DNA of 62,203 bases, filler included, from Ionaspis alba (lineage: Eukaryota): the NCBI GenBank assembly GCA_964255285.1. It is 5 parts of 5 records of this genome, joined end to end, with 100 filler letters (N's around TTAATTAATTAA, not from the genome) between each part and the next. Parts side by side here need not be neighbours in the genome. Positions count along the whole stretch, not along the records: positions 1 to 12,416 come from CAXUUL010000511.1; 4 more parts are not named here. One strand, written 5' to 3'. Below, piece by piece: positions 287 to 46,374 of the stretch (positions are counted from its first letter, which is position 1; every line of letters starts with the position of its first letter). The translations under genes and the position numbers were made by a program. The notes under the pieces were generated by a model, which searched no databases, was not told where the DNA came from, and was given only the letters and a program-made list of their open reading frames with translations.

Positions 287-1897
287 TCATCCAGGAGATC
301 TAACGGCAATCGGTTTGCGATATGGTGCGCTGTCCAACAGTCTTCCATCATCATGCTCCTTCCCATCCTCATACCTTCGCCGAGCCTCGGACCAGAGCCG
401 ATCTGCCTCCTCCCTGCCCGCAAGGCTGGCAGCGTGTAACCTCTCAGCTCCCATCTCCATATTTTCGATGTGCATTTCGAGCGGAACGTTCTCCGTCGAC
501 TCAGCGTTCACGACTCTTTCCTTTAGTCCATCGAGTTCGGCCCGCATGCCTTGTAATTTGACCATTGTTCCACCAACATGCTCAAGTGCTTGCTTGCGGA
601 GCCTGTCTACCTGCAATAGGAGCCTTAGGTCCGCTTCGGTCATCCTGAGTCTGGAACGGTTTCCACCGAAGTGGGTCCATATTTCGGACAGAATTTTGTC
701 TTTGGAGGTTTGTGCCTTCTGATTGTCTCGAATGGACAGGTCGCGCACTGCTTCTAGATGGTCGTCTAGCTTTCTCAGGAGCTCCTCGAGGCTCTGCCCT
801 TCCGCAATCAATTTGCCCACTTCCCTCTTGACAACATCCATGTGTTCCAGGTACTCCGCTAGCAAATCGTCCTTGCCGAATGTTACGGGCGTGAAGGGCG
901 AGATAAACCATCCCTGCACAAAAGTGCCGATGGCTCCTTGCGCGGCTTTCTTGACGTTCATGTCATCAAGGTTGCGCCTTGTGACACGCGAATGCATCAC
1001 GATTCGATCAACGGCTCCCCTGATGTGCACGTTGAATGTGGAAAGATCCCACGAGGCTTTGTCTGCTGCTTCGACATATCCATTGAACTCAAAAACGAAT
1101 TCACTGGCCGAGGGGAGTTTGCTGTGCTTGACAATGGCACGAAGGTCTCGTACCGCATGTTCACTTCGCTTCATATCCAGAGGGAGCGAGGCTCCGGGAA
1201 CAGTATGCTCGATGATATCTTCGAAAGTATTCTGGACATTGATGAGCTGCTCAAACTCGGCTGCGGGTGTCTCGTCGCCCTGGTATTGGGCGGAGATTGG
1301 CGCTCGACACATGCTGAGTGGAAGGAAGGAGACTCCAGGTATGCGACATAGCGGAGTGAGCGCGCCGTAGATGGGGGTGAATATAATATTTCGAAGAAAG
1401 GCCATGAAGACGAAGAGTAGATAAGCTGCTATCATGTAGGAGATCGGAGTCTTAAGAGCACTGAAAGTACCACCCATAACGTCGAGGACCCAGTTCGTGA
1501 CATGCTTGAGTATCTTGATCACACCATCAAGAATCTCGACCGGCGGAGAAAAGCCGTTGGATGAGTTCTTCGCAGCCACACCTTCAACGTTGTTCGACCT
1601 CGACGGTCGTCCCTCCTTCCTTGGGGATTTCGTAGATCTTTGCATAGGACCTTCATCGATGACTGGCATTCTGAGCTCGGGTTCCAGGCTCGCCCGCATG
1701 CCTGATTTCAAAGGACGTTTGCGTGGTGATGATGCAGCATTAGCTGATTGTTTTGAGGACGAATTGCCAACGGAAGGAATGCTGGCAGTACTTTGCGCGA
1801 CGTCGGACTCATCGTCTCCATCGCTTTCCACAACCCAGGAATCACCTAGGTCGTGCTTTGGTCGAGACCGACGATTCGGGGTTTGTTGCCTTGCCAT
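287..1897 (-). CDS. Uncharacterised fungal membrane protein (536 aa): disordered N-terminus, one TM segment, long helical/coiled-coil C-terminal region
   Basis: Intronless 536-aa ORF. Hydrophobic stretch PISYMIAAYLLFVFMAFL followed by PLCRIPG..C and heptad-rich helices. No recognised family motif. Confidence 0.8.
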   Translation of the reverse strand: MARQQTPNRRSRPKHDLGDSWVVESDGDDESDVAQSTASIPSVGNSSSKQSANAASSPRKRPLKSGMRASLEPELRMPVIDEGPMQRSTKSPRKEGRPSRSNNVEGVAAKNSSNGFSPPVEILDGVIKILKHVTNWVLDVMGGTFSALKTPISYMIAAYLLFVFMAFLRNIIFTPIYGALTPLCRIPGVSFLPLSMCRAPISAQYQGDETPAAEFEQLINVQNTFEDIIEHTVPGASLPLDMKRSEHAVRDLRAIVKHSKLPSASEFVFEFNGYVEAADKASWDLSTFNVHIRGAVDRIVMHSRVTRRNLDDMNVKKAAQGAIGTFVQGWFISPFTPVTFGKDDLLAEYLEHMDVVKREVGKLIAEGQSLEELLRKLDDHLEAVRDLSIRDNQKAQTSKDKILSEIWTHFGGNRSRLRMTEADLRLLLQVDRLRKQALEHVGGTMVKLQGMRAELDGLKERVVNAESTENVPLEMHIENMEMGAERLHAASLAGREEADRLWSEARRRYEDGKEHDDGRLLDSAPYRKPIAVRSPG

Positions 1898-2231
1898 ACT
1901 CGTGAAGAGTGCTCAATAACTCTGTTGTGTAATGTGACTGGCTACGAGATCGGACATGTGTGAAGGCACAGGAAGGAGCTTCTGGGCGAGGAGCGTTTTC
2001 TGGCGCTAAGTTGCGAAAAAAAGCCGTGGGATGAGTGGGCCCTGGTAGCGGAAGATTTGGAGGTTGTGGAGGCAAATCTCGTCGTTCCAAACCATCCTGG
2101 TGGTAGGCATCGCTCATGGTGCTGGTTTGTTGACGAATGACGTCGCGTTTCATATGCAGGCGCGTCGAGACTGCCAAGCACTCTAGCATTGTGATTTCGA
2201 GTGAATTTTAGCATTAGACAGTAGCTATGCT

Positions 2232-4273: not shown

Positions 4274-5451
4274 TCACTATGAGCATTAGCACTTTCCTCA
4301 TGTTCCCAGAACCTTGACACATACCTTCTCATCCAAGTCCGCAATCTTCAATACCGCCTTGCCAAAATTGTCGCCCTTCAGCATGCCCAAGAATCCCTTA
4401 ATAGCATCATCCATCCCGTTCGTGAAACTCATCTGTACCTTGAATGTTCCATCCGCAATCCACTCGGAAACTTTCTCGGAGTGCTCTTTGGCGTACTTGG
4501 GGCCGAAGTCTGGATCACCGACAATGAAGCCTCGCATAGTCAAACGCTTGGTCACGAGATTCGTCATGCCCTTGACGCCGTACTGTTGCCCGGGTGGGGA
4601 GTTGTATTGAGAGATCATGCCACAGCCGACTGAAGAACATTAGATTCGCCATTCATTATGAATAGAGAGCGAGAGTTGGAAAAGAGGATGGCAGACGCAC
4701 CAACACGACCAAAAGGCTTGAGAGCCTGCAACGCACTGTCAAGCTGAACGCCTCCAACATTCTCATAGTAAATTTCAATTCCATCAGGGGCCAACCGCTT
4801 GAGAGCTTCACTCGGCTTCTCTTTTTTATAGTTGAAACCACCGTCAAATTTCAGCTCTTTGATGATGAAGTCAAGCTTCTCGTCACTACCCACACTACCG
4901 ATGACCTTCAGGCCCTCGTGCTTGGCCAGTTGACCCACAAGCTGCCCCACAGCACCACTAGCCGCGGAAATGAAGATTGTTTCGCCTTTCTTCGGCTTGC
5001 CAATCTCGTAGAGGGAGGAGTAAGCTGTCAATCCAGGCATACCTAGAGCACCAAGATACACAGCTGGATCCAGCTTGTGAGGGTTTTCTAGCTTTTGCAG
5101 GCCCTTGGTCATTGCCGCCGAGGCGACTGTGTATTCCTCAGTGCCCAGCATCCCAACTACCAAATCGCCCTCCTTGAATTTGTCATTTGAAGATTTTAAG
5201 ATTTTGGCAACGGTACGAGTGGTCATGGGCTCGCCAAGGGTGAACGGCGGTGAATAGGATTTGATCTCTGGAGCCCGCATGCGTCCTCGCTGGTAAGGAT
5301 CGAAGGAGGCATAGTAGTTCTTGGTCGTCACGCCGTCCTCTGGAGGCGAGGTGGAGGGGTCGAATTCGCGGGTTTCAACTGCGATATGTTCACCGGGAAC
5401 GGGCCATTCGGTGGGCACCTTCTTGAAGATGAGCCCTTTGTTTTGGACCAT
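4274..5451 (-). CDS. NADPH-dependent alkenal/one oxidoreductase (PTGR/leukotriene B4 dehydrogenase-like MDR family)
   Basis: Starts MVQNKGLIFKK. Motifs DPYQRGRM, LGALGMPGLTAY, ISAASGAVGQLVGQLAK, YYENVGG and NFGKAV. Intron 4630-4700 joins the two ORFs. Probable last intron 4277-4324; if unspliced the stop is at 4298. Confidence 0.93.
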
Positions 5452-5865
5452 TTTTGCAGGACGTAACTGGAGGCTAGGGTTGTGGGAAGTTGTAATGGAT
5501 TCTTGGTGAAGGTTGTAATCACTTGAATAAGACACTGCAATTTTGGCACTCAATGAGAACAATACAGAGGGATCATATACAGCGCAAGTGATGAAAATAC
5601 GGACGAAGCAAACGGCATACGGGGCAATTACAAAGCTCGAGGATCGACCCGCATCAAGAAGGATAGTTAGAAAACGTCATATCCGCGACATCCCTCGACC
5701 GAAGTATTGCAAAGCATTAGACCCACTTAAAAGTTACCTTCAACCATTCCGCGGTGGGATGCTTCGGAGGAATCACCATATTCTGAACAGCACCGAGTTT
5801 TTGTCAATAGCTCGCGTGAAACTCATGCAGGCTACGCCATTGCGGAAGAATGACGAAAAGTTCAT

Positions 5866-6178: not shown

Positions 6179-7699
6179 TCAAACCAATACCTGTGCCTTG
6201 AAGATGATGAGGTTACTGTCGTAACTACCGCCAGATTCATCTCCCCTTCGGCTAACAACAGGGAAGATGACAGCCAGGATTGATCTTCCATGCAACGCCT
6301 CGCCTTTGCTGTCTTGTAGCACATCCTCCATTGATGCAGCATCGAAGGTTGTGCTTGCCGGCTTCTCTACTTTGAATACCGTCTTTTCTTTGATGAGGTC
6401 GAGTGCTAGTCCTGCTGCGGCCTTCACGACTTGATTGAGATGTTGCAGGCGTACCTCGGAATGATCCAGACCGGCTAGCCTGGCCGTGACAGCTTCAATT
6501 CTCTTGCTCACCTCTTTTACTGACGCTGATTGGTCTGCTTGGTAGCCTTTTGTCTTCTCCAGCAGCGCGACGGTCGAGGCGTTCCAGTCGTTTGCCTCCA
6601 CAACGGACGCTAGCCTCAATCAGTATCTATCGTTGCCAATCAAAGATTGTGGGCTTCTCTACCTTTTGCTTCAATCGCTTGCTTGAGCTCAGAGAACGCT
6701 GGACTACCAAGTAGCTCGCCGGTGTCGAATGCCTGCACGATCACGTCGGTTACCAAAGCCCTGAGCACCAAGTACTTGGTTCGAGGATTCTGAAGAAGCA
6801 TCACATAGTTCGGTTGGCTATCACGGAGTAAGGGCATGACATCTGGACCGGGTGAGATATCTGAACGAATGTTCTTGAAGTGCGTCACAACCCAGTCGTT
6901 GATGGCCTTGCAGAGTCTCGAGAAGCGTTCATGGACCTGTCGATCATCAAGGTTGGATACCCCGGTTCGACGGCCTTGCTGAAGAAGAAGTGCTTGAGTT
7001 TGTTGGAGTTGTGTGTTCTTCTCGTGAAGTTGCGTCTCCAATGAAGCAATGGTACTGTCAAATCCAGCACTAGGAGAATCATGCAACGATTTTGTCCCAT
7101 CTGTTGGGCTGTAACCTTCATGTCGTTTTCCTTTCTCTGATATATACGTTAGCTTCATGAGAGGGCCTAAGGACTTTGGATTGTTCACTGGAACGGCGCA
7201 ATATAAGAAACAGCAGAGCTGCAAGAGCAAGAGCAAAGAGAACTGCGAGAACTGAAATCCCAGCAACAAGCCCAGTGGGGCTCGCAGCCTTGGGCTCGGG
7301 CGTGGATGAGCTGGAAAGTGTCGTTGCTGTGTTCGTTACGCTCGTGTCATCTGTTGTTGACGTTGAGCTGGAGGCCGCAGAAGTTTCTGAAGACCCGAGT
7401 GTGGTCGTGCTGCTACTCAATCCGATGCTTGTACTTGAAGCGGTGTTTGTACTGGAAGCGGTACTTGTACTCAGGCTGCTGTTTGTGCTCGCAGCGGCGC
7501 TTACACCAGGAAGAGTCTTGGAGCCGACTATCGCAGCGGGAGTCACCTGCGTAGTAGCCAAACTGCTTGTGGCTGATGGTGATAGTGTTGCGATTGTCTT
7601 GTCATAGGTACTGGTAATGGTAACTGCTCCATTTATAATTATTGTACGTACGTGGCCTTCGACAAGACTGCCCACTGTCCAGGAATAAAAGGCCGACAT
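6179..7699 (-). CDS. Single-pass membrane protein (~471 aa): Ser/Thr-rich ectodomain, TM helix, cytoplasmic coiled coil, C-terminal GrpE/MIEAP-like domain
   Basis: Three ORFs are joined in frame by two phase-1 introns: 7137-7188 (GTGAAC..GCTAAC..CAG) and 6610-6662 (GTAGAG..CTGAT..TAG). TM is GLVAGISVLAVLFALALAALLFLIL, followed by basic RRSKKGKR. Coiled coil IASLETQLHEKNTQLQQTQALL. The protein ends FDAASMEDV...VIFPVVSRRG...IIFKAQVLV. Confidence 0.85.
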
Positions 7700-8402
7700 A
7701 TTCAGATTCCAGCTGCAATTAAATTTTTCTTGTTCACAAAACTCTCTTCGTATGCTAAAGGACTTAATCAGAGATTAGTGCTGCATACTTATCTCTGATG
7801 CATGAGAGCAGTTGAAAGGGGATGATCTAAGCAAAAGCATAGAAGGATGGGTACTGAAAAGGCGGTCACTTGCTCCTATGTGCGTTGCTTCAACATAATA
7901 CGTAGCACGAGGCACAGACTTCGGTCCCACAGGGGCCAGTCATGCCGCCTTGCACGGAGCATTGCAAAGCGCCAACCAGCAGTCACTGCAGGGTTTCAAT
8001 CCTTCTATAATAAGCGAGAAAAAAGTAAACACTGAGGCACGGTGCACAAACGGCGCAGTTCCTTAGCGTATATGAATTTAAACCTGGTCACTAATTCCTT
8101 TCCGTGCAGCAATATGGTGCCGCAGTCTTGCAGACCTTCTCCTTACTCGACGATCAATTCGAATTCCACCAATCGTTGTGAATTTCAAGAACGCGGCTGG
8201 GTTGGAGGGTACCGCCCATGCAGCCCAGCCTCCGCCAGCACATTCAGCTATGACTACTGAAAGTATGGCGTACCTTATAGATTATGGTGTGCCATAGACA
8301 ATATTGGGAAGTCCGGAACCCCGCATGTTGCTTCGGCTCTCAAGACTTGATTGTATTTATGGATATCGATGGTTTGAATTGGAGGTGTCCAAACATTGAG
8401 CA
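7700..8402. promoter_or_regulatory. Putative bidirectional promoter (~700 bp) between the membrane-protein gene and the Hsp70-like gene
   Basis: Divergent ATGs at 7699 (-) and 8403 (+) with no convincing ORF in between. Confidence 0.55.
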
Positions 8403-10437
8403 ATGACAGCCGTGCATGAAATCGTTGTGGGGGTTGATTTTGGCACCACGTACTCTGCAGTCGCTTGGGCTGAGACCTNNNNNNNNNNNNNNNNNNNNNN
8501 NNNNNNNNNNNNNNNNNNNNNNNNNNNNNNNNNNNNNNNNNNNNNNNNNNNNNNNNNNNNNNNNNNNNNNNNNNNNNNGTTGTGGGGGTTGATTTTGGCA
8601 CCACGTACTCTGCAGTCGCTTGGGCTGAGACCTCGAATCCTACCCAGATCGAGATTATCAAGAATTGGCCAACTTCTGGCCAGCTTGTCGGTGTTCAAAC
8701 ACCAAGTGAAATAGCTTACGCGGACGGTTCATCGAATACCTTTTCCTGGGGCTATAATATCAGTCCAAGAGCTCGAAAGGTGACTCTGCGAGAGTGATCG
8801 AAGTCACTGTGGAAAGGCTGAATGTTGATTGCAGGTCAAGTGGTTCAAGTTGGGATTGGAGACGGAAAATGAAGTACTGCCTCAATTCGCTGGTTTGACT
8901 GCCGTGGACGTCGTTCGAGACTACCTGTCAGCGCTCTACAAGCACATCATGACCACTTTGCATCGGAGGTTTGATCGGGGGGTTATGCAAATGACTACCA
9001 TTTCTTTCGTATTGAGCTGCCCTGCTGTTTGGTCCGATGCCGCCAAAAAGAAGACTGAAGACGCTGCTGTCCGTGCTGGTATGGGCAAGGGACACAATCT
9101 GGAACTGTTATCGGAACCGGAAAGTGCTGCTCTATACACTTTGAAAAGCCTCGAGAACGAACATTCTCGGATCAAGGTTCACGACCGTATTGTAGTTTGC
9201 GATGCTGGAGGGGGTACCGTGGACCTTATCTCATATGACATTCTCCAGACTCAGCCAAATCTACGAGTGGCAGAATGTGCTGCAGGAACGGGTGACCATG
9301 ATTTGCTTCTGTATGCTTGGTCTGCAGGCTAATCATAAATTAGGGGACTACTGTGGTTCTACATTCATCGATCGTGCATTCGAGAACCTTTTTGCAAAGC
9401 GTATGGGCGTACACTACGGCAAATTGTCTGTTGTCAATCGCCAGCAAGTGGTTAAGAACTTTGAGACCACCAAAATTGCCTTTCGAAACGATCCTGCTCA
9501 GGCAACATTTTATGTAAATGTCCCGACTATAGGGGATCTCGAGGACGCCAGAGTATATGGCGGCAACTTCGAAATTACTCGGGAGGAAATGAGGTCACTG
9601 TTTGATCCTATTATTGATCAAATTGTCAACCTCATCAAGGCCCAGGTCATGGCTGCTTCTGCTGGTCCTCAACAGGTGAATGCGATACTGTTGGTAGGCG
9701 GGTTCGGAGAGTCTGAATATCTGTTCCAGCGAATTGAGGAATGGGCATCTCGGTATGACATCCAGGTCTTACAACCAAGGGAAGCTTCTACTGCCATTGT
9801 TCGTGGCGCTGTGATGAAAGGACTGGAACCCAAGAGAGGGCCAACGAAGACAGAAATCTCCCGAAGGGCGAGGCGCTCCTACGGCGTCCCCACAAACCAG
9901 GCCTTCATCGAGGGAAAGCATTTGGACGTAGATTTGTGTTACCATAGCGAAACAGGACAAAAGCTTGCCAAAAACCAGATCAGTTGGTTCATTCACAAGG
10001 TAATTATTCATGCTGAAACAGTGGCTTTTTGGGTTCTGACATGGGTCGATGGCAGAACCAGATTATAACCGATGATCAAATCTTCAGTAAGTGGTCAATC
10101 ACAAAAGTCCGCGCATCAGGGGTTTGCTGATCGTGGAGAAGAACATGGCTTTTACCGCCACTTTAAAGAGTTGACCGTTTGGACGGACAACTTAGTATCG
10201 TCCACCCTGGACAACCCTCCTTCACGATGGGAGTCTTCGGTACAAAAGCATTGCACCATCACATCAGATCTCACTCATCTTAGCAAAAGGTCGAATTTCC
10301 AGCGAAAATGGCGAAAGCTTACCCGATACTATACAGCGAATTATGACCTGGTTCTGAGTATGAGGAACAACAAATTGACGATATCTTTAGAATACAAGGG
10401 CAAGGAGTATGGGGTGGCTGGGGTTCAGTTCGACTGA
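8403..10437 (+). CDS. Atypical Hsp70-family protein (HSPA12-like actin-fold ATPase, ~553 aa)
   Basis: Phosphate-1 VVGVDFGTTYS, then PAVWS, EPESAA, phosphate-2 VVCDAGGGTVD, CGSTFID, adenosine LLVGGFGESEYL and AIVRGA. Introns ~8780-8834, 9292-9343, 10000-10055 and 10087-10141. The apparent N-terminal duplication is a gap artefact. Confidence 0.93.
8479..8578. other. Scaffold gap with 55-bp duplicated flanks (assembly artefact)
   Basis: 8424-8478 is identical to 8579-8633. Confidence 0.95.
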
Positions 10438-10811: not shown

Positions 10812-12416
10812 ATGGACGAGACCATTGCTGTCAATGTATCTGCTCGATCGAGGTCTCAACAGCCTGGTACTAGAATTGGTCATGGTACGGTTGGATCCCA
10901 TTGATATATTGCACTCTAGAACGTATGCTAATAATCAAGATAGATTGGTTAGGAGACTATACTGAATTAATAACAAGACTGTCCTCGGACGGGTTTGGAG
11001 GAGATGTAGCATCAACTTTGTCCCTGCCTACGAGTCCACACAACAAGCGGGGAGAATCAAGTCCACTGCCACCCACAAACTTGGTCGATGACAATACACC
11101 AAAAGATCATGCACTAAAATATGCTGGAGCTGGCCGATTCTGGAAACCACCGGACACAGAAACTCCGCAAGCTGGCCGAACACGTGCATGGAGGCGATGG
11201 TCAGACAAATCTTTTGCAGTCAATAGCAGTCGTTTCCGACAGAACCTGGTCCCATTCATACCAGCAAGGAAAGAGCGGAAGAGCTTGAGCGATCATGGCT
11301 CTACTGTTTCATTTGATCGCTACCTCGAACAACCACTTGTAAATGACGGGAGATTCTCAGAATCGACAGAGGGAAGTCATGGACCAGCTCGTCCTGATAG
11401 TGGGAAAGTCGAAGTCGGTGCGTCCGATGCACAGTCATCTGGATCAGAGCCATTAAAATGGCTACCTGGCTCTCTTGCTTATCGGATCGCGATGGATGAA
11501 CGACGTATCAGAACGAAGGAACAACTCCAAAGACTCCAACTGGATGAAGAGAAATGTGCGTCCGAGCTCGAGACTGCTGAGCACCCACTTTCAGGACCTA
11601 CAGGATCGCCGATTCCCGCTCAGGTTGACGGCTCAGCAGGCAAGAACACACTTGATCCATCAGTATGGGCAGAAGAACCGCCTGTCGTTGCTTTTGAGAC
11701 TGTTAGTCCACTACTCGAAGGCCTTTCTGGCGACTCCACTCCCGACTCGGGAAGGCACCCCAAGCCAGCCACGATTGAAATCATCGATGTTGATCGCGAC
11801 TGTGAGACGAGACCAAATGACACGAAGGAAGAAACCCTGTACAATGAGTTCTCTCGTCAGGTACCCTCAAGTTTCGGAGTCCCCACCATTATAATTCCTG
11901 AACGCCCCTTATTTCAAGACATTGTCTTATCCGGCCAAGAATCATCCACTGAGCAGCAAGACCGCCCTGAAAAGACCGATTCAAGTCCGTGCCCTGAAGT
12001 ACCCGAACTATCACCAGATCCCGTATCTACAACCCCAAAGATCTTGAGCCCGGCAACACCCGCCGCACCCCAGGCTCAACTTGATGCCCAATCTGTTTCT
12101 CTCCCTGAATTACATTCCGATTCGACCAGCATTCCGATACAGGATTCCCTCTTCTCGGACCTCGACTTGCTTATCTCTGCACTTCCCGCTCGAGCAAACA
12201 CCCAGCACCCGCTCTACCACTCATCTCTCCCGCAATCAGATACTACAGGAACCGGCACCGCTATAGAGCTCAGCTCTACAAAGAGTGTTGCTTACCGTCC
12301 TCATCTACGGCGTAAACCTGTACCCAACACTCCACGTACCCTTCGCCAACACTCTGATTTGACCGTTTATAACACATTACCCTGCGAGCCGTATCCGCTT
12401 TTAGAAAGGGAGCAGA
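10812..12416 (+). CDS. Uncharacterised Pro/Ser/Thr-rich, largely disordered protein; 3' end truncated by the scaffold end
   Basis: ATG 10812 (MDETIAVNV...). A phase-1 intron 10885-10943 (GTACGG..GCTAAT..TAG) joins it to a >490-codon open frame with a short coiled coil (MDERRIRTKEQLQRLQLDEEK). Confidence 0.7.
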
Positions 12417-12516
12417 NNNNNNNNNNNNNNNNNNNNNNNNNNNNNNNNNNNNNNNNNNNNTTAATTAATTAANNNNNNNNNNNNNNNNNNNNNNNNNNNN
12501 NNNNNNNNNNNNNNNN
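12417..12516. other. Artificial contig linker N44-TTAATTAATTAA-N44
   Basis: 12-mer carrying stops in all six frames, embedded in N runs. It recurs four times in the window. Confidence 0.97.
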
Positions 12517-15500
12517 CCCTCAACCCTCCTTCTCAGCCACTCCCCTCCCTCCTCCTTCACAAACTCCATCGTAGGGAAATAATGCTCATTCTTCTTCATC
12601 GTAGCAACCCACGGCACGTTATCGAACGTCACAACCCTGAGCCTAAAGTATGTATTATCTGGAATTCCGCCCACCTCTTTCAGGAAAGCCTCGAGTGTGG
12701 GCGTAGGGACGGAGTTCACAGCTGTAATGAAATTCGTAGGTGCGAGCCCGTACTGATAAGCTGGCGATCCCCGCGTCCGCGCACTGACGTAGACTTCTGA
12801 GTGTAATTTCGAGATCTGCTGCCGCACGGCATGGTGCGGGCGGTGGAGAACGGCGCCGCAGAAGAGCAGTGCATGGGTGGTTGCCAAGTCGGTTGTTGGG
12901 ATTGTGGGGACGTTGAGTGCGAGTTCTTTGCCGCCGCGAACGACGAGCGCACGTAGAGATTGCGACGTGTACATGATGTCGAGTTCAGAGACCCGAGTAA
13001 TGATCTGGTCATTGAGCGTAAGAAGGACATCACCCTCGTGCAAGGACTGGGCATCCGGTCCCGAAGGAGGCGCGCAATCGAGTTTGCGCACCATAAAGAG
13101 CTGATGCCGGCTAGGATTCGCCTGGGCGACGCGCGCGATCCAGGCGTCCGAGACGCCCATGATGCGCGCTTGGGACATCTGCACGGTGTTGGTTTCGATA
13201 TTGAGAATTCGCAGGTCGGGGATGTGGCCGGCGCGGATCTGCTCGATGATGGGTAGGAGGGTCGGGGTTGCGAGACCCAGGTGGTATTCGACGTCTTTGC
13301 TGGAGTGGGGAGAGCGTTCACCGAGATAGGTTAGCCAGAGGGCTTCGATGGTGCCGTCGGGGGCGACGAGGACGCCGTTGCCGCATTGGCCGCTGAGGCC
13401 GGTGTCGACGGTTATGGCGTCGAGGTTGAGCGCGCGGTAGCGTGGGGCAGAACTATTGGAAGGAATTGCCACTGTTGTTATGTCGGTTACCGTTGTCTGG
13501 GCGACGACGACACGGAGGTTCTGGTTAAAGCCAAGGAAGATGGTGGAGGCGCCTTGCTTGATGGTTTTGGTAGAGAATTTCGCTGTTTGTACCGGAGCAT
13601 GGACAAGAGAAGGATCGTACTGGATGATGGCGTAGTTGGCGAGGGGATGTAGAAAGATTACTTTGGCGTCGACGATAATGGAATCAGCGATGGTGACTGA
13701 GAGGTCGCAGAGGTCGTAGGGTACAATGGCTCTCGAGACTATGACTAGACCTTTCTCAGCGTCGACAACGAGGCCAAATCCGATCTTGCGGGCTCGAGGA
13801 AAGCCATCCAATTTCACAGGCATGGTACATGATATTCGTACAAAGCTTCTGATGACGTCGGAGGCAGCTGGATGAGAAATGCTATCCAATTGAACAAATT
13901 CTGCTGAGCGTGGAACAGGGGCGCTTGCCGGTATGGGATCTGCGAGATCACTGAAATCCCAGAGTCCAGTCTTGTCGTTGCGTACTGCCATCCTCATCTT
14001 GCTAGTCCAATGTCGGTCAATATAGAGAATGCTGGTATTGATGGTGTGAAGGTCTCTTAGATGTTTGTAAGTCACAACAACTCGTGCGCGATCAGGTATC
14101 CCTTTCATGACCTCGACGAACGTATCCAGGTCGGGAGTCCTCTTTTGATCGACCGATTCGATGACCCATCCTGACTCTGTATTTTCGAATCTGAATGAGC
14201 CCGCCGCCTCACATACGTATACTCCTCTGACTGGAATTGCATAGAGACGTGCTTGCTGGTAAGAAAGGTTGTGGAAGGAGCCTCCCGCGACAGTGACGAA
14301 ACGATCTGGTGTTATGGCATGAAGGTCGCCAACCTCAAGTTCCATCTCGACATCCTGGCCACCCCGTTGAACCAAGACACTGATCGTCTTCCCAACATGA
14401 GAATCGAGGATATCGTCCAGGCGGATGAACTGAGTGAGGAGCTCTCCATTGACATTTATAAGCACATCCCCTTCCTCAATCTTCTTGTCAGCGGGACCTT
14501 CTGGCAAGACAATCTCCGCAGCTAGCATCCCTGTCTCTTTGGGAAAGTCTTTCCTAATTGCAGCTTCCCACTCTGGTGTCAGACCTAATCTTCTGCATTC
14601 GTCGAACGGCTTGATGATCCACTGAGTCTGAATGGTTCCACGTGTTACGGGCTCCCCTCTCCTGATGCATTCAAGGGCACGCAAAGGGCGATCCAACGGC
14701 AGGAAGTAATCTGTCGCGGCACCATCTGATCTACCTCCCGCCTGAAGTGCAATGGCGTAGCCATCGACGTTCACTACTGGGCTGCCTGAGCTTCCACCAC
14801 TTGCAGCCGCTGCCGCTTGTATGTAATTTGTATTGAAGTCACTGTATCCATCTCCATACTCTGGTGCATTTCTGTCGAGGCGACTGATGACTCCAGACAA
14901 GATGCTGAGTTTTTCTCCTGCATCATTACCCACCACCCTGATCTCTGCTCCAACTTTTGCTAAGTCTGGTTTCAATTCCAACGCGGCCAAAGGCATGTAT
15001 TTGATAGCTTTGGGATCGAATCGAAGGATACCGAAGTCATGGATAGGGTCGCGGTAGATAGGATAGACATCGCACTGCATAGTCCCATCAGCCAATGCCA
15101 TCTAGCAAGGAGAAGAGTGTCCATAGAGGAGCTGTTCTCAGTATACCTCTTCGTGGTTGTCGAAGATGCAGTAGCCAACAAATGGGCCAGAAGAAACAAC
15201 ATGACGCTGTTTCGAATCAGCCTCAAGAAGATCAGGGTTGTAGGACGAAAGTTCTCACATTGGTCAATATGTACCCTTTGACAGCATCTACCACAAAACC
15301 AGTAGCTTCACTCGAGCATGCAGCATCTGTATCAAAGGAACAAGGTTGACAAAAGTGTATCGAAACCACATTTTTCACTACCTGCTCTATTGTCGCCTGC
15401 CATGCCGCAGTGTCTGCAACGGCAGCTGTAAGAGGAAGCAGGTGACCTTCGTCCTCCTCACTGTCCATGACATAGACGGGGGTGTCACTTGGTGTTTCGT

Positions 15501-27901: not shown

Positions 27902-28067
27902 TCCACAACTACATCTGCCGTTTTGACAAATTCCAACGTCCCATTTCTTGGTACCATATACCTCTCACAAAATCCAGGATCTCAAGATCCGGACTATCTG
28001 ATCCACAACGGCTGCTGTAGCTTCCAACCCACGGGACGGCCTTTCCCTCCCGCCCCATCTCCTTGCC

Positions 28068-30692
28068 ATGCAGACACAGGAATCCAACGGCTCCAATCCG
28101 ACAATGTCGACAGCTGGCAGGTTCTCCTCCTTTTCCAGGCCTGCTAACCTGAACGATCATACCGGATTTTCGCATGGAGCTTTCACTTCCAATCAGCAAT
28201 CGATAGGTGGCTACGCTGATCGACATTCCCGTCGTGGAAATCTTCCTGCTTCGCTCAACAGCGCAGCCTTTGGACAAAACAATCAGCAGAGTCACGGCGA
28301 GATGACGCCCGGTACCGCGTTCGATATGAACTTTACACCGCTTCTCCCGTCCCAGTTACTTTTGGGAAGTCCATTCCAACCTGGTAGCCCTTCAAATTAT
28401 GCTTCTCCCCAATTTGCGAGCTTCGCAAACTTCCAGCAACAGGGCAATCAGCATCAACAAAATCAGCAGAACTATGTCAACAGTTCCTTGCAGCACCAGC
28501 ACTCTACTCTTTCGCCTCAACTATATCAGGGTATGCATTCTCCGACGGGATTTGGAGGACAGCAATATCTCGCAGGTCCGCAATCCCCAACATTTGGTAA
28601 TGTGGGAGGCCAGAACTTCGGCAGTGCCCCTGCACCGATGCAGCTGGCGCCTGGCATGGTCCATGGAACGAGCAGGACTGTGTATCTGGGAAACATTCCA
28701 CCGGAGACTTCGGCTGAGGAAATTCTGGGCCATGTCAGGAGCGGTCAGATCGAATCAGTGCGCCTTTTGCCTGACAAGAATTGCGCTTTCATTTCCTTCC
28801 TTGATGGTAGCTCTGCCACCCATTTCCACTCCGACGCCATCTTGAAGAAGCTTTCCGTCCGGGGCCAAGACATCAAGATTGGTTGGGGAAAGCCGTCTCA
28901 GGTGCCAACGTCCGTCGCACTCGCAGTACAGCAGTCGGGCGCTTCAAGAAATGTTTATCTTGGGAATCTGCCAGAGGATGTTACAGAGGCGGAATTGCGA
29001 GAAGACCTCGGCAAGTTTGGTTCCATTGATACCGTCAAGATCGTTCGTGAAAAGTCGATCGGCTTCGTCCACTTCCTTTCGATCGGTAATGCCATCAAAG
29101 CTGTATCTCAGTTGCCTCAGGAATCCAAGTGGCAAGCTCCTCGTCGTGTGTACTATGGCAAAGATCGCTGTGCCTACGTTTCGAAAACACAACAGCAGAA
29201 TGCAGCCCAGTATCTTGGAATTGCACCTGGCTATTCTCACGTGCTCAACGGTGCAGATAGAGATCTCATCTCGAATGCACTTGCACAACAATCCGTCGCA
29301 GCAGCCGCTGTAGCGACGACTGCCGGAGGAGTAAGCAATTTGGGTAACCGCACTGTCTATCTTGGGAACATTCATCCGGAGACGACCATCGAGGAGATCT
29401 GTAATGTGGTTAGAGGTGGGCTTCTGCATCACATTCGCTACATTCCTGATAAGCATATTTGCTTTGTCACTTTCATTGATCCTACTTCTGCAGCGTCGTT
29501 CTATGCATTAAGCAATCTTCAAGGCCTGATGATCCACAACCGACGTCTGAAGATTGGTTGGGGCAAACACTCTGGCGCACTTCCTCCAGCTATCGCACTT
29601 GCTGTGAGCGGAGGTGCTTCTCGGAATGTCTATGTTGGCAATCTCGATGAAACATGGACCGAAGAGCGTCTCCGGCAGGACTTCTCGGAGTATGGTGAGA
29701 TCGAGCTCGTCAACACACTGCGTGAGAAGAGCTGCGCCTTTGTCAACTTCACGAACATTGCCAATGCCATCAAAGCTATTGAAGCCATCCGTGGCCGTGA
29801 AGAGTACCGCCGCTTCAAGATCAACTTCGGCAAAGACCGTTGCGGTAACCCGCCTCGCCAAAACAACATCCAGCAGCAGCAGCAGCATGGACAGCAGCAG
29901 CACCAACAGCAACAGCACCTGCAAGCCGGGACCATGATCGGCGGACGCGAAAGCATCTCCCAATCCCCCCTTAGTACCGCATTACCCAACGGATCCTCCA
30001 CCTCACCTACCCGCGCTGCCCTCTCCCCACCCCCCGGCTCCACAGGCTCGCACTCTCAAAACGGCATATCGGCGCCCTTCCAACCGCATCACGGCCCCAC
30101 TCCCTCCGCCATCCTCAACGCAGGCAGCAACAACCCACTGACCATGTACCTCAACCAGGTTTCGCAACAAGCCCAGCAAGACTCCGAACCCCGAGCACCC
30201 ACAGATCCCTATTCCGTCGCTGCCCTTCAGCAACAACAGCAGTCCGTCCTCGCAGCCCAACAAGCCGCCCTCTACGGCCCCTCGACTGGTGATCTCCTCA
30301 ACGGTTCTGTGCTCGAGCCCCCGCACTCCACCCACAGCAACTCCACTTCATACTCCGCAGCCCAGGGTCTCAACGGCTTTACACCGTCTACCGCTACCAC
30401 CATTGGCGGACTTCTTGCGCCTGCTCGTGCTTCCCACGCCCGTGCAGTTTCTCTTCCAGTTTTCTCGCCAGAGGTCTTCGGTAATGGCGTCAATGTGCAG
30501 GGTCAGGGACAGGCTGCACCGCAAGGTGGCGTGTTTCAAGGTCAGGGCTTGCAGCCGCCGAACTCGCATCGTCAGCAGCAGAGTAGCTTCTCGGGGATGA
30601 GTACGGGCTTTGGCGGGTTCGGGAGCCAGGGCTTTGGACTCGCGGCGGTCGGGGAGAGGGGGTTGAGTGGGTGGGCGGAAGAGAGTGCTTAG
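28068..30692 (+). CDS. nrd1: Four-RRM RNA-binding protein, Nrd1 (S. pombe negative regulator of differentiation)/Mrn1 family
   Basis: Four RRMs beginning RTVYLGNIP, RNVYLGNLP, RTVYLGNIH and RNVYVGNLD, with KIGWGK and GKDRC motifs. Q/N/S/G-rich termini. Confidence 0.92.
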   Translation: MQTQESNGSNPTMSTAGRFSSFSRPANLNDHTGFSHGAFTSNQQSIGGYADRHSRRGNLPASLNSAAFGQNNQQSHGEMTPGTAFDMNFTPLLPSQLLLGSPFQPGSPSNYASPQFASFANFQQQGNQHQQNQQNYVNSSLQHQHSTLSPQLYQGMHSPTGFGGQQYLAGPQSPTFGNVGGQNFGSAPAPMQLAPGMVHGTSRTVYLGNIPPETSAEEILGHVRSGQIESVRLLPDKNCAFISFLDGSSATHFHSDAILKKLSVRGQDIKIGWGKPSQVPTSVALAVQQSGASRNVYLGNLPEDVTEAELREDLGKFGSIDTVKIVREKSIGFVHFLSIGNAIKAVSQLPQESKWQAPRRVYYGKDRCAYVSKTQQQNAAQYLGIAPGYSHVLNGADRDLISNALAQQSVAAAAVATTAGGVSNLGNRTVYLGNIHPETTIEEICNVVRGGLLHHIRYIPDKHICFVTFIDPTSAASFYALSNLQGLMIHNRRLKIGWGKHSGALPPAIALAVSGGASRNVYVGNLDETWTEERLRQDFSEYGEIELVNTLREKSCAFVNFTNIANAIKAIEAIRGREEYRRFKINFGKDRCGNPPRQNNIQQQQQHGQQQHQQQQHLQAGTMIGGRESISQSPLSTALPNGSSTSPTRAALSPPPGSTGSHSQNGISAPFQPHHGPTPSAILNAGSNNPLTMYLNQVSQQAQQDSEPRAPTDPYSVAALQQQQQSVLAAQQAALYGPSTGDLLNGSVLEPPHSTHSNSTSYSAAQGLNGFTPSTATTIGGLLAPARASHARAVSLPVFSPEVFGNGVNVQGQGQAAPQGGVFQGQGLQPPNSHRQQQSSFSGMSTGFGGFGSQGFGLAAVGERGLSGWAEESA

Positions 30693-31909: not shown

Positions 31910-34900
31910 TCATCTCTGGAGCAGCGATCAGCACACTGCCAAATCATTTCCAATGTACAAGACGCATCGGGGAAGACTTACCCTTCCTCTTCTCCCTCCC
32001 GCTTGCTGCTGCTGCTGCTGCATCCCCTGCTGCGGGAAATACATCCCCTGATATGGCGCATACCCACCCATCATACCTCCACTAACCATGGGTCCAAAAC
32101 CTGGAGGCGCATACCCGGCATGCTGCATCATGGGACTCGAACTCACCTGTTGTGGCATCGGGGATGGCTGGGTCTGGCGAAAATTGTCAAAGGAGGGCGC
32201 GGGGGAGGGATAGCCACCGTAGACGTTGCCGGGTGAGATGCCCCGCCCTTGAGCGGCGAGGAGCGCTTGCTGGTATTGCATTTGCTGTTGGGAAACAGCG
32301 TTGGGGGCGGCATAAATGGGACTGGAGATGCTGAATTGGTCGTAATTGGGGTCGAGGGCAACTGGGGAATTGTATTGCTGCTGAGAAAGGAATTGGGCAC
32401 TATTCTGGCGTTCCAGAGGCGAGTGCTGCATCTGCCCGTTGCGAGATCCTTGCTGCGAAATCGGTCGGCTCCGCTCGTGGTAGGGCGTGTTGCCGTTGGA
32501 GTGCTGATGATCGCGCTCGGGTTTGCCGCTTACACGTGATGAAAGCCCAACTTCGTCCATGAGGCGCTTGTAACCTTGCGAAGGGGATGCTTTGAGCTGC
32601 GTGAGGACGTTGCGGACATTTTGAACGACTTCAGAGCGCATGGTTTCGTCGAAGAAGGGCGTGGTGAGGATTTTGAAGATGAAGGTTGCACCGCAGGATT
32701 GGTCGCTAAGGATGTCTTCGAGGGTCTTGTCGTTGGGAGAGAAGAAGAGAGCTTGGAGAACAGCGTCGCGTGCCTCGGGTTCGTTGCGCTGGTTGATGAC
32801 CTTCAAGACGGTGAGATATGCGACCTTGTGAGTGCAAAGGTGGACAAGATGAGGGACTAGTCTTGGAGCAAGCATGGTCCTTCGACGAGGGAATGTGCAG
32901 GTGTCCAAGAACCAGGTCAAGAGGAGGGCTCCGTTGGCGTTGGTAGCCAATTGAACGCTATGCAGAGCAATAGCCGACGCGAGCATTCGTTGTTGGTCTT
33001 TGGTCGAGTGATGACTTTCGAGACACGCTCGCATTGCTCTTGCACCGAACCTGCCTTGAGCGATTTCCCAAAGCTGGTTGAGCATAGATTCGAAAATGAA
33101 GTTGTTCCATGGATACCCAAATCGTAGGCAGCACTGAAGGACATAGTTCCCGTACTGATCGAGGAACAAAGCGACGGTGTAGGGCCTTAGACTGTTGATG
33201 ATCATCGATATCTGATTAGGTGTCTTGGCCACATCAATGATCTTCTGGGCTGCCCAAGTCCCGTTCTTGTGGACACCAATCTCAGCAAGATGAGGAGCAA
33301 TTTCCGCGAGCATGGCTTCTTTGACAGCTTCAGAGCAGTACTCAAAGAGCTTTTGCACCACGGTGTTGCCGAGATAGTCCGAGGAAAGCTCTGCGATCTC
33401 AGGTAGCATGCCCATTGCAATTTCTTCAATTTCAGCCTGTGAGATCACATTGTTATCAATCCTCTTTCGAATCTCTCTCAATTTAGGTGCATCGTGTAAT
33501 CTGGTGTGACTGGGCTCTGGAACTGTAGGTATCTCCGTCACGAAATCGTTAAAAGCTGTTGCAGCGTCGATACTCGCAGCTATGGTTGGCAAATCTTGCT
33601 CGTTTGCTCCGAACTGTTGGACGATTTGGAGCATCTCTTCTCTTAGCTCCGATAGTTTCGGGACCTGAAGAGCTGCGGCAGCACTATCGGCGAGCGCTCC
33701 GTTCATTTGCTGAACACCATTCAAGCCGTTCGGGTTGACTTGGTCACTACGACCGTCAAGACCTTTGCTATGGGGGTCCGGACTTGGAGATGGATATGCT
33801 CCGTGATGACCAGGCGTGCCTCCCGAGGACGCTGAAGGGGCCTTGGCGTACCCGATCCTCACGGGACCGGCACCAGGAAATATCTCCTTTCCATTCAAGG
33901 TGGCTTTCGCCCTTATTGCACAATCAATATCCTCGTAGTTGACGAAGCCGCAGTTTTTCTGTACAAGAACTCTTGTAGACTCGATTTTGCCAAAACCACC
34001 GAAGATTGCTTGAAGAGAGGAGACTGTCGTGGACGTGGGAATGCTACCGAGCCATAGAGCCCGTGTCGGACCTTCCAGTCCATGGTCCTCGGACGCCTCG
34101 GCCATCTGCTGGCCACCAAGACCCGACAAGTGGAGGGCTCTGACAGCTTCCGGAAGTCCATCGTATTCGGAACTGTCTAACCTACTAAAGTCCGAAGCCA
34201 GCATACTGTTTTCTAATTTTGAAGGCATCGCGAGATAGCCTCTTCCTGAACTTCGGAGAGGTGAATCGAGCACACCAGCAGTGCGAGCTCTCGGACGACT
34301 CGCAGATGCTTGATTCGCAAAAGCTTGGACGGCCAGATTGTGCTGATGAATCTGCTGCTGGGTTGCTGCAAGTGCTGCAGCCGCCGAGGCCGCTGACGGT
34401 GTCAACGTCCCGCTGTGAAGACCAGAATATCGTCCACCATTACTATAATCGTCCTCTTCATCTTCTGCATATTTCTCTTTGGCGTTGACAGAATATGAGC
34501 GGTATCGACTCAGGTTCTTATTGAAGTTGGCGAGATCTGTGAGGAAAGGGGGTAGCATGGGAGTGGTGGCAATACCGGGCAACCCAGCCGAATTTGGTTG
34601 TGCCATTGTGGCCCGGCTTTGTTGCGGAGTTTCCGCAAGTCCGAGATAGTCGAGGGTTTTCACGTCTGTGTCAGCAAGACTGTCTCGGGAAAAGTGTGAC
34701 TGAGCTGGAGACTCAGGACCCTCGGACGACCGAATGCTCGTTAGAGTAGTACCTCTCTCTCTCCCAGTACCCCAACTCGAAGAGAAGAGAGACGATCCGA
34801 AGGGACTTGTTGATCCCAGATAGCTTGCTCGTTGGGGCATCGATCCAGCACGTAGCCTCGACAGTAATGAAGAAGTCGAGGGTGCGCTGCTCTGTGATTT

Positions 34901-35540
34901 GTTCTCGTTACTACTCTCTAGGGACAGTAAGGAGATTGGTCGAAAGGGGCTCGTCGAAGGCGTCGGACGAGATGTCCTTGGCATTAGAGATTGAGGAGGA
35001 TTTGTTCCAGTCATTAGGTTTGCTGGCGAAAATCTGGAGGGTACGGTCCCAGCCCGCGCTCTCCGGGCGGTAGGCTGTGTATTGGTCTCAACAGCTGGAG
35101 GCGTGAAATCGGGAAACCCATCTTGACTTGGGGATTCGGGAATAGTCTCCCTCAGAGGTGTGGAGCCACCACTGGCAGGAGGACCCCAAAGGTTCGGGGT
35201 CGTTAGCCCTTCTTGCGCTTGTATTTCCCGTGCCCTGTCATCGACCGGCAGAGTTAGTGATTGCAACGCTAGTAGCCAGCGGAGGCACTGACCTTTTGGT
35301 GTATAAACGACTGCCGAGCTCGTGCGATGGGGAACCAGCCCCGAGTCGAGAAGAGCCGCCAGAATTGTTCATGGTACCCAGAGGATTCGGATTTCCAAAA
35401 GGCGATCGGCTGCTCAGGGAGGGAGGTTCGATGGGCGATGTGTTGGCTGTGGAAGAACCAGATCGAGGTTGGGTGGCCGATATTTGCGGAAGGTAATTGA
35501 GGTTGAGATGATGGTCCGGTCGTGAAGACATCGGCATCAT
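31910..35540 (-). CDS. JSN1: Pumilio-family RNA-binding protein with an RRM (Jsn1/Puf1 class)
   Basis: RRM TRALWLGSIP..CGFVNY..VRIGYAK. PUF repeats SDYLGNTVVQK, HKNGTWAAQK and DQYGNYVLQC. Intron ~35236-35292 gives KR|AREIQA. A final intron 31916-31981 gives GGRRGRR*. Confidence 0.94.
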
Positions 35541-37329: not shown

Positions 37330-37429
37330 NNNNNNNNNNNNNNNNNNNNNNNNNNNNNNNNNNNNNNNNNNNNTTAATTAATTAANNNNNNNNNNNNNNN
37401 NNNNNNNNNNNNNNNNNNNNNNNNNNNNN
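37330..37429. other. Artificial contig linker N44-TTAATTAATTAA-N44
   Basis: Same linker as at 12417. Confidence 0.97.
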
Positions 37430-38366
37430 CCCCCTCATGGATCCCCCCCGAAATCCCATCAATCCACCAAGCACACGTCTCCGCCAACATAGCTCCCACC
37501 TTCCCATTTCCACCATTCAAAACACTCCCCACAATGCTAATCCCCGTCCTGCCCACCTGATCTGTGATATCCAGACCCGTCGCAAAGATCCTTTCAGAGA
37601 TACGATGCGTCCGCTCGTATCTGTATGCGCTTCTGAGGAACAATTTGAGGTAGGGCAGGATGAAGGCGAAGAAGAGGAAGAGTTGGACGATGCCTGAGGC
37701 GAGGAGGCGGTGGAGGAGGGAGGGCGGATGAGAGGAGGGATTGGTGGCGGTTGTCGCTCTTAGGTCTCTTTTAGGTTGTTGAAGAGATGCGGGTAGTGCG
37801 GCGCGTAGACTCGCGGTTTCGGCTTCGGTGAGCTCGTTTGGGAGACCACGCAGGAGATAGGCTACCGCGTGGAGGTAGAGGTGGCGGGCGAAGGAGCGGC
37901 TATCGGCGTCCCGGTGTTGGGATTCCGCGACTGCTGATTGAAGGAGGTCCAGTCCTGTCGTTGTTTTAGCTACTTCCTTGTCAAGCATTTTGCTCTTGTT
38001 GATCTTACCTTGGTTTGCATACTTCCACCCATTTCCAGAGGGCTCGCTCAGCTCGAGGGACGGAAACGCTTGGGTGAGTGATCTGGAAGAAGATCGTCGG
38101 GAGCCTTGCGAGAGGCTGGTACACGCAGTCAAGTCTGCGCTTTGAGGACGCTTGTTCAATGCGACGATGGATGTTCGGGATGATCGGAGGCTGTAAGAGC
38201 TGAGAGATCTCTTGATGGATGGCATGGTGGGTAATCGATGTTTCACTGCTCCTGGCAGCATGGTAAATAAGATAGAAGACTTGATCGTTGCGGATGCGAT
38301 GACGGGCTTGTCGAAGAGTTCTTGAAGCTCGTTTGGCTCGAGTGATTGTGATCTTGGGTGAGCCAT
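37430..38366 (-). CDS. Uncharacterised fungal protein with a C-terminal hydrophobic segment; 3' truncated
   Basis: Starts MAHPRSQS. Segments GWKYANQG|LDLLQSAVAE, LYLHAVAYLLRGLP, LLHRLLASGIVQLFLFFAFILPY and YERTHRISER. In-frame intron ~37955-38008. Confidence 0.75.
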
Positions 38367-45584: not shown

Positions 45585-46374
45585 CGTTGAAGTTGCCGAG
45601 TGCCCGGCAAAATGCTATCGATGATAGGGCTCTCGACGAACAATTCCACACATACTAATGACGACTATGACATTTTGCAGCGATTTTTCAATACACATTA
45701 CGGCCATGACTCCGGAGCGCGCTTTTACAGGGATTAGACTTAGAGGGATATAATAAGGGCTTCCGGAAGCCTCAGTAGGTGTGCAAACACTATGGTTCTG
45801 GAATTGTTGCATTATAGGCTCCGGCGCTGGGAACACGAGGGAGCAAAATACTGGGTGGCTGGTTCTGCTTCACTATACCATGTAGCTTTTCTTGCTGGTG
45901 ATCTTACTTTGATAATCGAACATTGCTTTAGCTTAATTTCTTTTTTCACATGCTGCAAAAGCTGGACATTCGTCGCCGTGTGTTTTAACCCAACTAAAAG
46001 AATACAATTCGAACATCATAATCACTCACGATCGTGACTTGATGATTGCATCTGGATTACAGAAGGTGACAGATGGGACAACTAATATCTCTCGCCCCAC
46101 GCTGCCGTTCCCAAAAGGAAAGACGAGAAGAAGCCGTGCGGCGATAAGACAGGGCTGCGTGGGGATTGGTGGTTGTGACAGCTGCAAGATGGACCAGCTA
46201 AATCAAATGCCCAGTCGATCCACGATCCCAGCATCATCCCATACACCGGTTTTCCAATAATCTGTTTCTCGTCTTTGCGCAAGCATTTTGTCGTTGTCAC
46301 GCGCAGAAAAGTTGCTCGATGCGCTCGTTCAGGTTGTCCGAACATGCGTCAGTGCAGCTACTCCCTTGCCTCTG

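Follow-up and report, generated by a model that had tools for sequence, protein, structure and literature searches.

A stretch of 62,203 nucleotides from Ionaspis alba (assembly GCA_964255285.1; five parts of five records joined with filler), here called the window, carries on its minus strand, at 7699-6179, a three-exon gene for a protein of 471 amino acids, as read from the sequence and its six-frame translation. The gene is real and its frame is intact. Its product belongs to a large unannotated fungal family that spans Pezizomycotina and has no Pfam entry. For the role of the protein we offer a more tentative explanation: it may be a membrane-tethered, probably dimeric, GrpE-like partner of an atypical Hsp70-like ATPase encoded next to it.

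The splicing was based on orthologues and on canonical splice signals (Table 1). Scripted splicing gave 1413 nucleotides, or 471 codons, with 0 internal stops. Across the joint between exons 2 and 3, the annotated orthologue of Xylographa soralifera (P0003) aligned unbroken, with 50% identity over 159 amino acids and 51% over 141 amino acids, and the layout of exon 1 is common to the orthologues. The frame is more than a chance one: at E≤1e-3, 313 representative proteins conserve it. Exon 2 carries the helical-domain peptides LDDRQV...INDWVVTHF, PNYVMLLQ and TGELLG. Exon 3 carries the helices NDWNASTVALL... and the hairpin RIEAVTARL / RLQHLNQVVKAAAGLALDL, followed by a beta unit with the strands FKVE, FDAASMEDV, ILAVIFPVV and LIIFKAQVLV, the secondary structure being that of an orthologue model described below.

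An earlier note on this DNA had marked 6179-7136 as a cytoplasmic domain with GrpE-like and MIEAP-like motifs. This interval runs from the first base of exon 2 (7136 exactly) through the 53-nt intron, exon 3 and the stop codon. The peptides quoted there all occur in the minus-strand translation: LDDRQVHERFSRLCKAINDWVVTHF at 6877-6951, NDWNASTVALL at 6560-6592, VKAAAGLALDL at 6395-6427, FDAASMEDV at 6320-6346, ILAVIFPVVSRRG at 6242-6280, and IIFKAQVLV at 6182-6208, with the TGA directly after it at 6179-6181.

Word-indexed searches returned five lichen-fungus proteins only, four from Xylographa and one from Trapelia, named "Mucin-12" or "hypothetical protein". A profile (A1) made from the cytoplasmic parts of these five proteins and the two exons of the window was run against 1.84 billion representatives. 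At E≤1e-3 it matched 313 proteins; 143 of them stayed at the stricter limit of E≤1e-10, and 34 at E≤1e-30. The family hidden Markov model (HMM) matched exon 2 at positions 5-141 (E 4.8e-52) and exon 3 at positions 140-277 (E 4.9e-48), which makes the window protein a member of this unnamed Pezizomycotina family.

The conserved domain of about 240 amino acids was always C-terminal among the family members. Its consensus contains D..L..WV..F, P.Y..L, WR..T, R..L..V..A..L....Q, F....MED, FP...K.G..G and I.KA.VL. The sources name these proteins "hypothetical", "Mucin-12" or "Involucrin repeat protein", and the names looked up for 20 members were those of hypothetical proteins from several fungal classes. 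The named genera include Candelina, Agyrium, Sclerophora, Pycnora and Sarcosagium, which belong to Lecanoromycetes and allied lichen classes; Trizodia, Leptodophora and Cadophora, of the Leotiomycetes; and Orbilia, of the Orbiliomycetes. Members were also found in Neurospora crassa (NCU01491) and Podospora anserina (Pa_3_7180), which are Sordariomycetes, as are the remaining genera, Colletotrichum, Sporothrix, Sodiomyces, Xylaria and Ophiocordyceps. NCU01491 was not found named in the literature searched; the name "Involucrin repeat protein" does occur in the literature.

None of the 57 full-length members examined had a Pfam family over the conserved domain at E≤1e-3. A protein search with a profile of the C-terminal part, aimed at MIEAP, GIL1 and proteins of GrpE size, gave 305 matches at E≤10 that were dominated by fragments of the family itself, and no Pfam domain was present in the best 120 of these 305. 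In 401 Pseudomonadota genomes the family profile had one match (E 0.0026), which is at chance level. When metagenomes were scanned with the clade to which the window protein itself belongs, no relative came up.

Two members (P0132 and P0134) have an N-terminal AKAP7 2'5'-RNA-ligase-like (ASCC1-type) domain above the Pfam cut-off. In one clade, many JGI fragments are named "activating signal cointegrator complex subunit 1". Behind both observations stands either a real fusion or merged gene models.

The window protein consists of four parts in order: an ectodomain of 141 amino acids, one transmembrane (TM) helix, a coiled coil and the conserved domain. Ser and Thr make up 48% of the ectodomain (residues 1-141), which has one N-x-S/T site and is probably mucin-like and O-glycosylated. 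Lys and Arg are in excess behind the TM helix (6 in the 15 residues after it, 1 in the 15 residues before it), and therefore, by the positive-inside rule, the mucin-like N-terminus is predicted to be extracellular and the C-terminus cytoplasmic. With its Ser/Thr-rich ectodomain, single TM helix and predicted cytoplasmic C-terminus, the window protein has the layout of mucin-like single-pass fungal surface proteins, a term that describes a layout and no homology family. The region marked in the earlier note corresponds to this cytoplasmic part, about two-thirds of the protein, and annotation does use the name "hypothetical" as the note had expected; its wording "non-mitochondrial" can only be inferred, from the TM helix and the positive-inside rule.

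Membrane attachment varies within the family. Among 62 full-length rows, 14 have, like the window protein, an internal TM helix behind a Ser/Thr-rich stretch, and 3 have a hydrophobic N-terminus. The other 45 have no membrane segment and carry a coiled coil instead.

The fold was predicted for the Trapelia orthologue P0007 (residues 154-437), the first row of a 149-row alignment (A2). Seven of the 150 listed matches (P0062, P0086, P0097, P0108, P0124, P0136 and P0145) were left out of A2 as fragments under about 110 amino acids or matches to the N-terminus only. The AlphaFold2 model from A2 had a predicted local distance difference test score (pLDDT) of 93.2 and a predicted template modelling score (pTM) of 0.84. 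A first model, from a 7-row alignment, had a pLDDT of 60.4, with the C-terminus below 50, and was not used. In the A2 model, the coiled coil is a continuous helix of 37 residues (2-38). Eight more helices follow across 48-216, and the C-terminal strands lie at 222-225, 237-239, 256-264 and 275-283. The orthologue domain is thus predicted to begin with a long helix, to continue as a bundle of helices and to end in a beta unit of four strands, and the small beta unit that had been proposed behind the helices at the C-terminus is present in the model. A homodimer prediction scored 0.43, with a control at 0.38, and weighs neither for nor against binding.

The predicted order of a long N-terminal helix, a hairpin and a beta unit of about 60 amino acids with four main strands is also the order in GrpE (PF01025; 1DKG, 9BLS). 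In a fold search over 48,161 chains with the whole orthologue domain model as the Foldseek query, Escherichia coli GrpE (1dkg_B) and human GrpEL1 (9bls_B) ranked 23 and 33. Both spanned model residues 1-284 and were the first listed rows to cover the whole model, beta unit included, and 1dkg_B came first among the 993 chains aligned out of Foldseek's top 1000. These results make a GrpE-like architecture plausible, as a likeness of the predicted fold short of established kinship.

The sequences give a similar picture. The family and GrpE share the motif register G..FD(P)..(H/M)(E/x)(A/D), then V..V/FP, then ..(R/K)(P/A)A.V.V. The C-terminal 139 columns of the family (107 rows) were compared by hhalign with 34 GrpE sequences from Pseudomonadota genomes, with a score of 20.5, a P value of 0.012 and a probability of 3.6%. 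The alignment set FDxxxMED, and with it the last helix and the first strand, against GVxxIxxxGxxFDPxxHxA of GrpE. Its Viterbi path was collinear over 81 columns; the global path also paired the last strand, ..I.KAxVL, with LRPAMVxV. None of 100 column shuffles reached 20.5 (mean 11.5, standard deviation 1.8, maximum 16.1). Reversed GrpE scored 15.0, the reversed family 15.4, and five unrelated real families from the same loci 10.0-13.7. This comparison is not independent evidence for GrpE, because the aligned motif had prompted the GrpE idea. Judged from the sequences, the motif resemblance is real and in register, at a level well below accepted thresholds. Of the motif claim in the earlier note, the resemblance of FDxxxMED and KAxVxV to GrpE in the proposed register was recovered; its significance was not.

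A further likeness to GrpE lies in the neighbouring gene. In bacteria, grpE often adjoins a gene for an Hsp70-type ATPase. In the window, the family gene lies head to head with a gene on the opposite strand that starts at 8404, 704 bp away, and encodes an atypical Hsp70-like ATPase. This gene matched Pfam HSP70 weakly (E 9.8e-5 and 5e-4), and its product matched the nucleotide-binding domains of Hsc70 and DnaK only at E about 3e-6. It is collinear with Hsp70-like genes of metagenome loci up to 10431.

These loci came from metagenomes scanned with another, soluble clade of the family, 52 loci in all. Searching them by tblastn with the Hsp70-like exons of the window gave a related gene in 10 loci, always 4.5-6 kb downstream of the family gene and on the opposite strand. 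In 13 loci the flank downstream reached 7 kb or more, and 10 of these had such a gene. Identity between the metagenome and window Hsp70-like genes was 55% over 130 amino acids for exon 2 and 27-36% for the other exons. When open reading frames (ORFs) of at least 90 amino acids were compared in seven loci, the family gene and the Hsp70-like gene were the only genes in common with the window. The pair has stayed linked while the surrounding synteny was lost and the orientation changed. The linkage, seen in two lineages, lends thin support to a functional pair. Fungi and animals commonly have atypical Hsp70-like ATPases, for which no cofactors are known to us; literature on such cofactors was likewise absent among the matches listed in our search.

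Three side observations concern these loci. The Hsp70-like relatives in the metagenome loci have diverged far less than the family domain to which they are linked: among the ten positive loci, the Hsp70-like proteins are 84-100% identical and the family domains 59-84% (100% within one identical pair). A conserved gene of about 300 amino acids lies between the two genes in the metagenome loci (L149:2149-3066, L127:3355-4221, L148:11947-12939 and L143:12563-13432); it had no Pfam match in L149, L127 and L148, and no counterpart in the window. In the window itself, a run of 100 N at 8479-8578 interrupts the first exon of the Hsp70-like gene, and about 40 bases (gttgtgggggttgattttggcaccacgtactctgcagtcgcttgggctgagacct) are repeated on both sides. 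The run resembles an assembly gap whose edge was duplicated, so that this exon was probably read twice.

In the explanation that we tentatively prefer, the Ser/Thr-rich, mucin-like ectodomain would be extracellular, and an intracellular coiled-coil stalk would probably pair two chains. A helical bundle would follow the stalk, its last hairpin bearing a small four-strand beta "wing". This stalk-hairpin-wing arrangement would resemble the Hsp70 nucleotide-exchange factor GrpE. The module could dock on the nucleotide-binding domain of the head-to-head Hsp70-like ATPase and either regulate its nucleotide cycle or position it at the membrane. The window protein would then be a dedicated, membrane-tethered cofactor, and the soluble members would have swapped ectodomain and TM helix for a long coiled coil.

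Several observations weigh against this explanation. The model is that of the Trapelia orthologue (57-59% identical to the exons of the window), not of the window protein itself. Foldseek gave no match in PDB at E≤1e-3, the best being talin R13 at 0.036, and no GrpE was among its first 50 rows; this was one of the checks that the earlier note had proposed, here run on the orthologue model. The helical part, about 170 amino acids, is far larger than the two-helix hairpin of GrpE. Pfam GrpE appeared at E≤10 in only 5 of 149 members, with a best E value of 0.14 at 12.3 bits (the gathering score is 25.8 bits), and one of these matches (P0109) was confined to the coiled coil. The hhalign probability of 3.6% is far below the usual acceptance level, and with a shallow alignment compared with E. 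coli GrpE it was 0.36%. As for the linkage, the 10 positive loci amount to about 7 distinct sequences and about one lineage, and their orientation and spacing differ from those of the window. Three loci of another clade (L114, L116 and L123) had no Hsp70-like gene within 7-10 kb downstream.

Other searches were in line with these. The exons of the window gave no row for Pfam GrpE (PF01025) at E≤10. In PDB, phmmer brought up no GrpE chain with either exon (best E values 0.3 and 0.46), nor did a search with the C-terminal profile, whose best match was Rop at E 0.13. The window protein also differs from GrpE in being membrane-anchored with a mucin-like ectodomain, in its predicted cytoplasmic rather than organellar location, and in that the linked ATPase is an atypical Hsp70-like protein. 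Of the divergent GrpE-fold domain proposed earlier, the motif register stands and a GrpE-like architecture is plausible; by the refuting condition that the earlier note had set, homology is not established, as neither profile nor structural similarity was significant.

A different account, which we regard as doubtful, takes the protein as a cell-surface sensor or scaffold for cell-wall or osmotic stress. The helical bundle would be a general docking platform (FAT- or GIT1_C-like), and the GrpE resemblance and the Hsp70-like neighbour would be coincidental. The composition of the ectodomain, the single TM helix and the basic stop-transfer stretch fit this account, as do the 14 of 62 full-length members with the same layout and the name "Mucin-12" that one orthologue received from its source. 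In proteins of the Mid2, Mtl1, Msb2, Hkr1 and Opy2 type, too, a Ser/Thr-rich ectodomain that does not start like a signal peptide is followed by one TM helix and by basic residues next to the membrane. The cytoplasmic tails of proteins of this type are short or disordered, whereas the window protein has a folded, widely conserved cytoplasmic module of 280 amino acids that also occurs without the membrane part. The Pfam scans gave no match to a sensor family, Mid2 and WSC included. The 45 of 62 full-length members without a membrane segment imply that the domain works without a surface part.

The docking platform itself could be sought in GIT1_C/FAT bundles (PF12205). In one clade (alignment A5), 43 of 117 members had a weak match over their last helices to Pfam GIT1_C, a helical bundle that binds paxillin (best E 0.0048). 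P0060 and P0014 matched it as well, and FAT, talin and vinculin bundles were among the weak Foldseek rows for the orthologue model. However, all the GIT1_C matches were below the 25-bit cut-off and came from one closely related clade, and those domains lack a C-terminal beta unit. A sensor or scaffold would leave unexplained both the invariant beta unit (FDxxxMED, FP, KAxVL) and the repeated Hsp70-like linkage.

It is unlikely, in our view, that the domain corresponds in fungi to the C-terminal domain that animal MIEAP/SPATA18 shares with the plant DUF641 proteins GIL1, IRKI and COST1. A coiled-coil dimer would in that case present a domain that binds lipid or a GTPase (atlastin-like Sey1/RHD3), not Hsp70. 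In the ESM Atlas, the nearest named cluster to the whole domain was PF16026 MIEAP (0.77). For the last 138 amino acids of the orthologue, the nearest were PF24994 GIL1_IRKI_C (0.82 and 0.80) and PF16026 MIEAP (0.79). All these scores, which count as a lead, are under the Atlas's own mark of 0.9, below which the tool calls matches often chance. MIEAP and GIL1/IRKI also resemble the family in having a coiled coil and then a C-terminal domain, as the 45 soluble members do. The report on COST1 describes a DUF641 coiled-coil dimer whose C-terminal domain was modelled beside a nucleotide-binding domain, the GTPase domain of RHD3; it states that COST1 raises the GTPase activity of RHD3, and the authors ask there for non-plant counterparts (PMC13189119).

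Pfam gave no support to such a relationship. Neither PF16026 (27-bit cut-off) nor PF24994 gave a row for the exons of the window or for any of 99 members listed one by one, and when 149 and 117 members were scanned, both fell outside the 25 families matched most often; Pfam MIEAP was also found in 0 of 401 Pseudomonadota genomes. Thus the similarity to MIEAP and plant DUF641 suggested in the earlier note was retained at the level of nearest Atlas clusters and lost at that of Pfam models. The window protein differs from MIEAP and GIL1/IRKI in its ectodomain and TM helix; we know of no member of either family with these. According to Ikari et al., metazoans have Mieap orthologues and fungi have none, a statement that concerns OrthoDB orthology and not remote homology (PMC10845071). 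Searches of the literature for MIEAP named together with GrpE found nothing related, and those for HSPA12A with SPATA18 found apparently gene lists only.

A relationship with MIEAP and COST1 would be compatible with a GrpE-like partner of the Hsp70-like ATPase if those domains are themselves GrpE-like. It is conceivable, though improbable, that the fungal family, animal MIEAP and plant GIL1/IRKI/COST1 are all divergent GrpE-type "wings" borne on coiled-coil stalks, and together make up a eukaryote-wide class, so far unrecognised, of dedicated cofactors of atypical (HSPA12-type) Hsp70-like ATPases. The window member would then couple a glycosylated extracellular stalk, across the membrane, to the ATPase on its inner face.

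We see very little chance that the protein is a true, divergent GrpE homologue acting as a nucleotide-exchange factor for canonical cytosolic Hsp70s. The same sub-threshold profile and fold signals would speak for it, together with the match of one member (P0060) to Pfam GrpE at E 0.14, in which residues 11-90 aligned with HMM positions 55-132, a stretch that takes in the hairpin and runs into the beta domain. Every one of these signals, however, is below significance, the linked gene is atypical rather than canonical, and the family model has about 110 extra helical residues between stalk and hairpin. Moreover, the cytosolic Hsp70s of eukaryotes use other exchange factors, of the Hsp110, HspBP1/Fes1 and BAG types, and to our knowledge GrpE in eukaryotes is confined to organelles. 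A pseudogene or a chance open frame with no functional gene is hardly credible, given the intact 471-codon frame with canonical introns, the orthologues at 50-59% identity that share the layout, and the HMM matches to exon 2 (E 4.8e-52) and exon 3 (E 4.9e-48).

The left neighbour of the family gene encodes an NADP-dependent oxidoreductase, and no link between the two was found. Elsewhere in the window, ordinary fungal genes lie at 12468-15101 (-), 28002-30689 (+), 31931-35368 (-) and 46261-48660 (+); their products are a Nma111/HtrA-like protease with PDZ domains, a multi-RRM protein, a PUF plus RRM protein and a Zn2Cys6 transcription factor. The window also contains genes for a class II tRNA synthetase, an eIF-2B-family protein and a calcineurin-like phosphoesterase. 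Three further long open frames are listed in Table 1.

Table 1. Positions of the family gene, its parts and other features in the window
Feature	Position	Strand	Remarks
Exon 1	7189..7699	-	start codon 7697-7699; 141-residue ectodomain, TM helix and first basic stop-transfer residues
Predicted TM helix	7199..7276	-	residues 142-167; mean Kyte-Doolittle value 3.04 over 19 residues
Intron 1	7137..7188	-	52 nt; GTGAAC...CTAAC...CAG, with CTAAC as branch site
Exon 2	6663..7136	-	juxtamembrane basic stretch, coiled coil IASLETQLHEKNTQLQQTQALLLQQ, first half of the conserved helical domain
Intron 2	6610..6662	-	53 nt; GTAGAG...TAG
Exon 3	6182..6609	-	last helices and C-terminal four-strand beta unit
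Stop codon TGA	6179..6181	-	from the scripted check of the gene model
Spacer between the divergent genes	7700..8403		704 bp; presumed shared promoter region, by position
Atypical Hsp70-like ATPase gene	8404..10431	+	several exons; start MTAVHEIVVGVDFGTTYSAVAWAE; end approximate
NADP-dependent oxidoreductase gene, left neighbour	4618-5460	-	ADH_N_2 and ADH_zinc_N
Long open frame	10877-12469	+	531 amino acids; no Pfam match at the thresholds used
Long open frame	290-1912	-	541 amino acids; no Pfam match at the thresholds used
Long open frame	37377-38408	-	344 amino acids; no Pfam match at the thresholds used

If the window protein is a GrpE-like partner of its neighbour, atypical Hsp70-like ATPases would gain a working cycle that can be tested. 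Work on MIEAP and on plant DUF641 proteins concerns mitochondrial quality control, autophagy and the shaping of the endoplasmic reticulum, and we know of no explanation of their C-terminal domain at the level of fold. A fungal relative in Neurospora (NCU01491) and Podospora would open the question posed by MIEAP and COST1 to genetics. Even on a modest reading, the family deserves a name: it has more than 300 clusters, its fold can be predicted with confidence, and Pfam has no entry for it.

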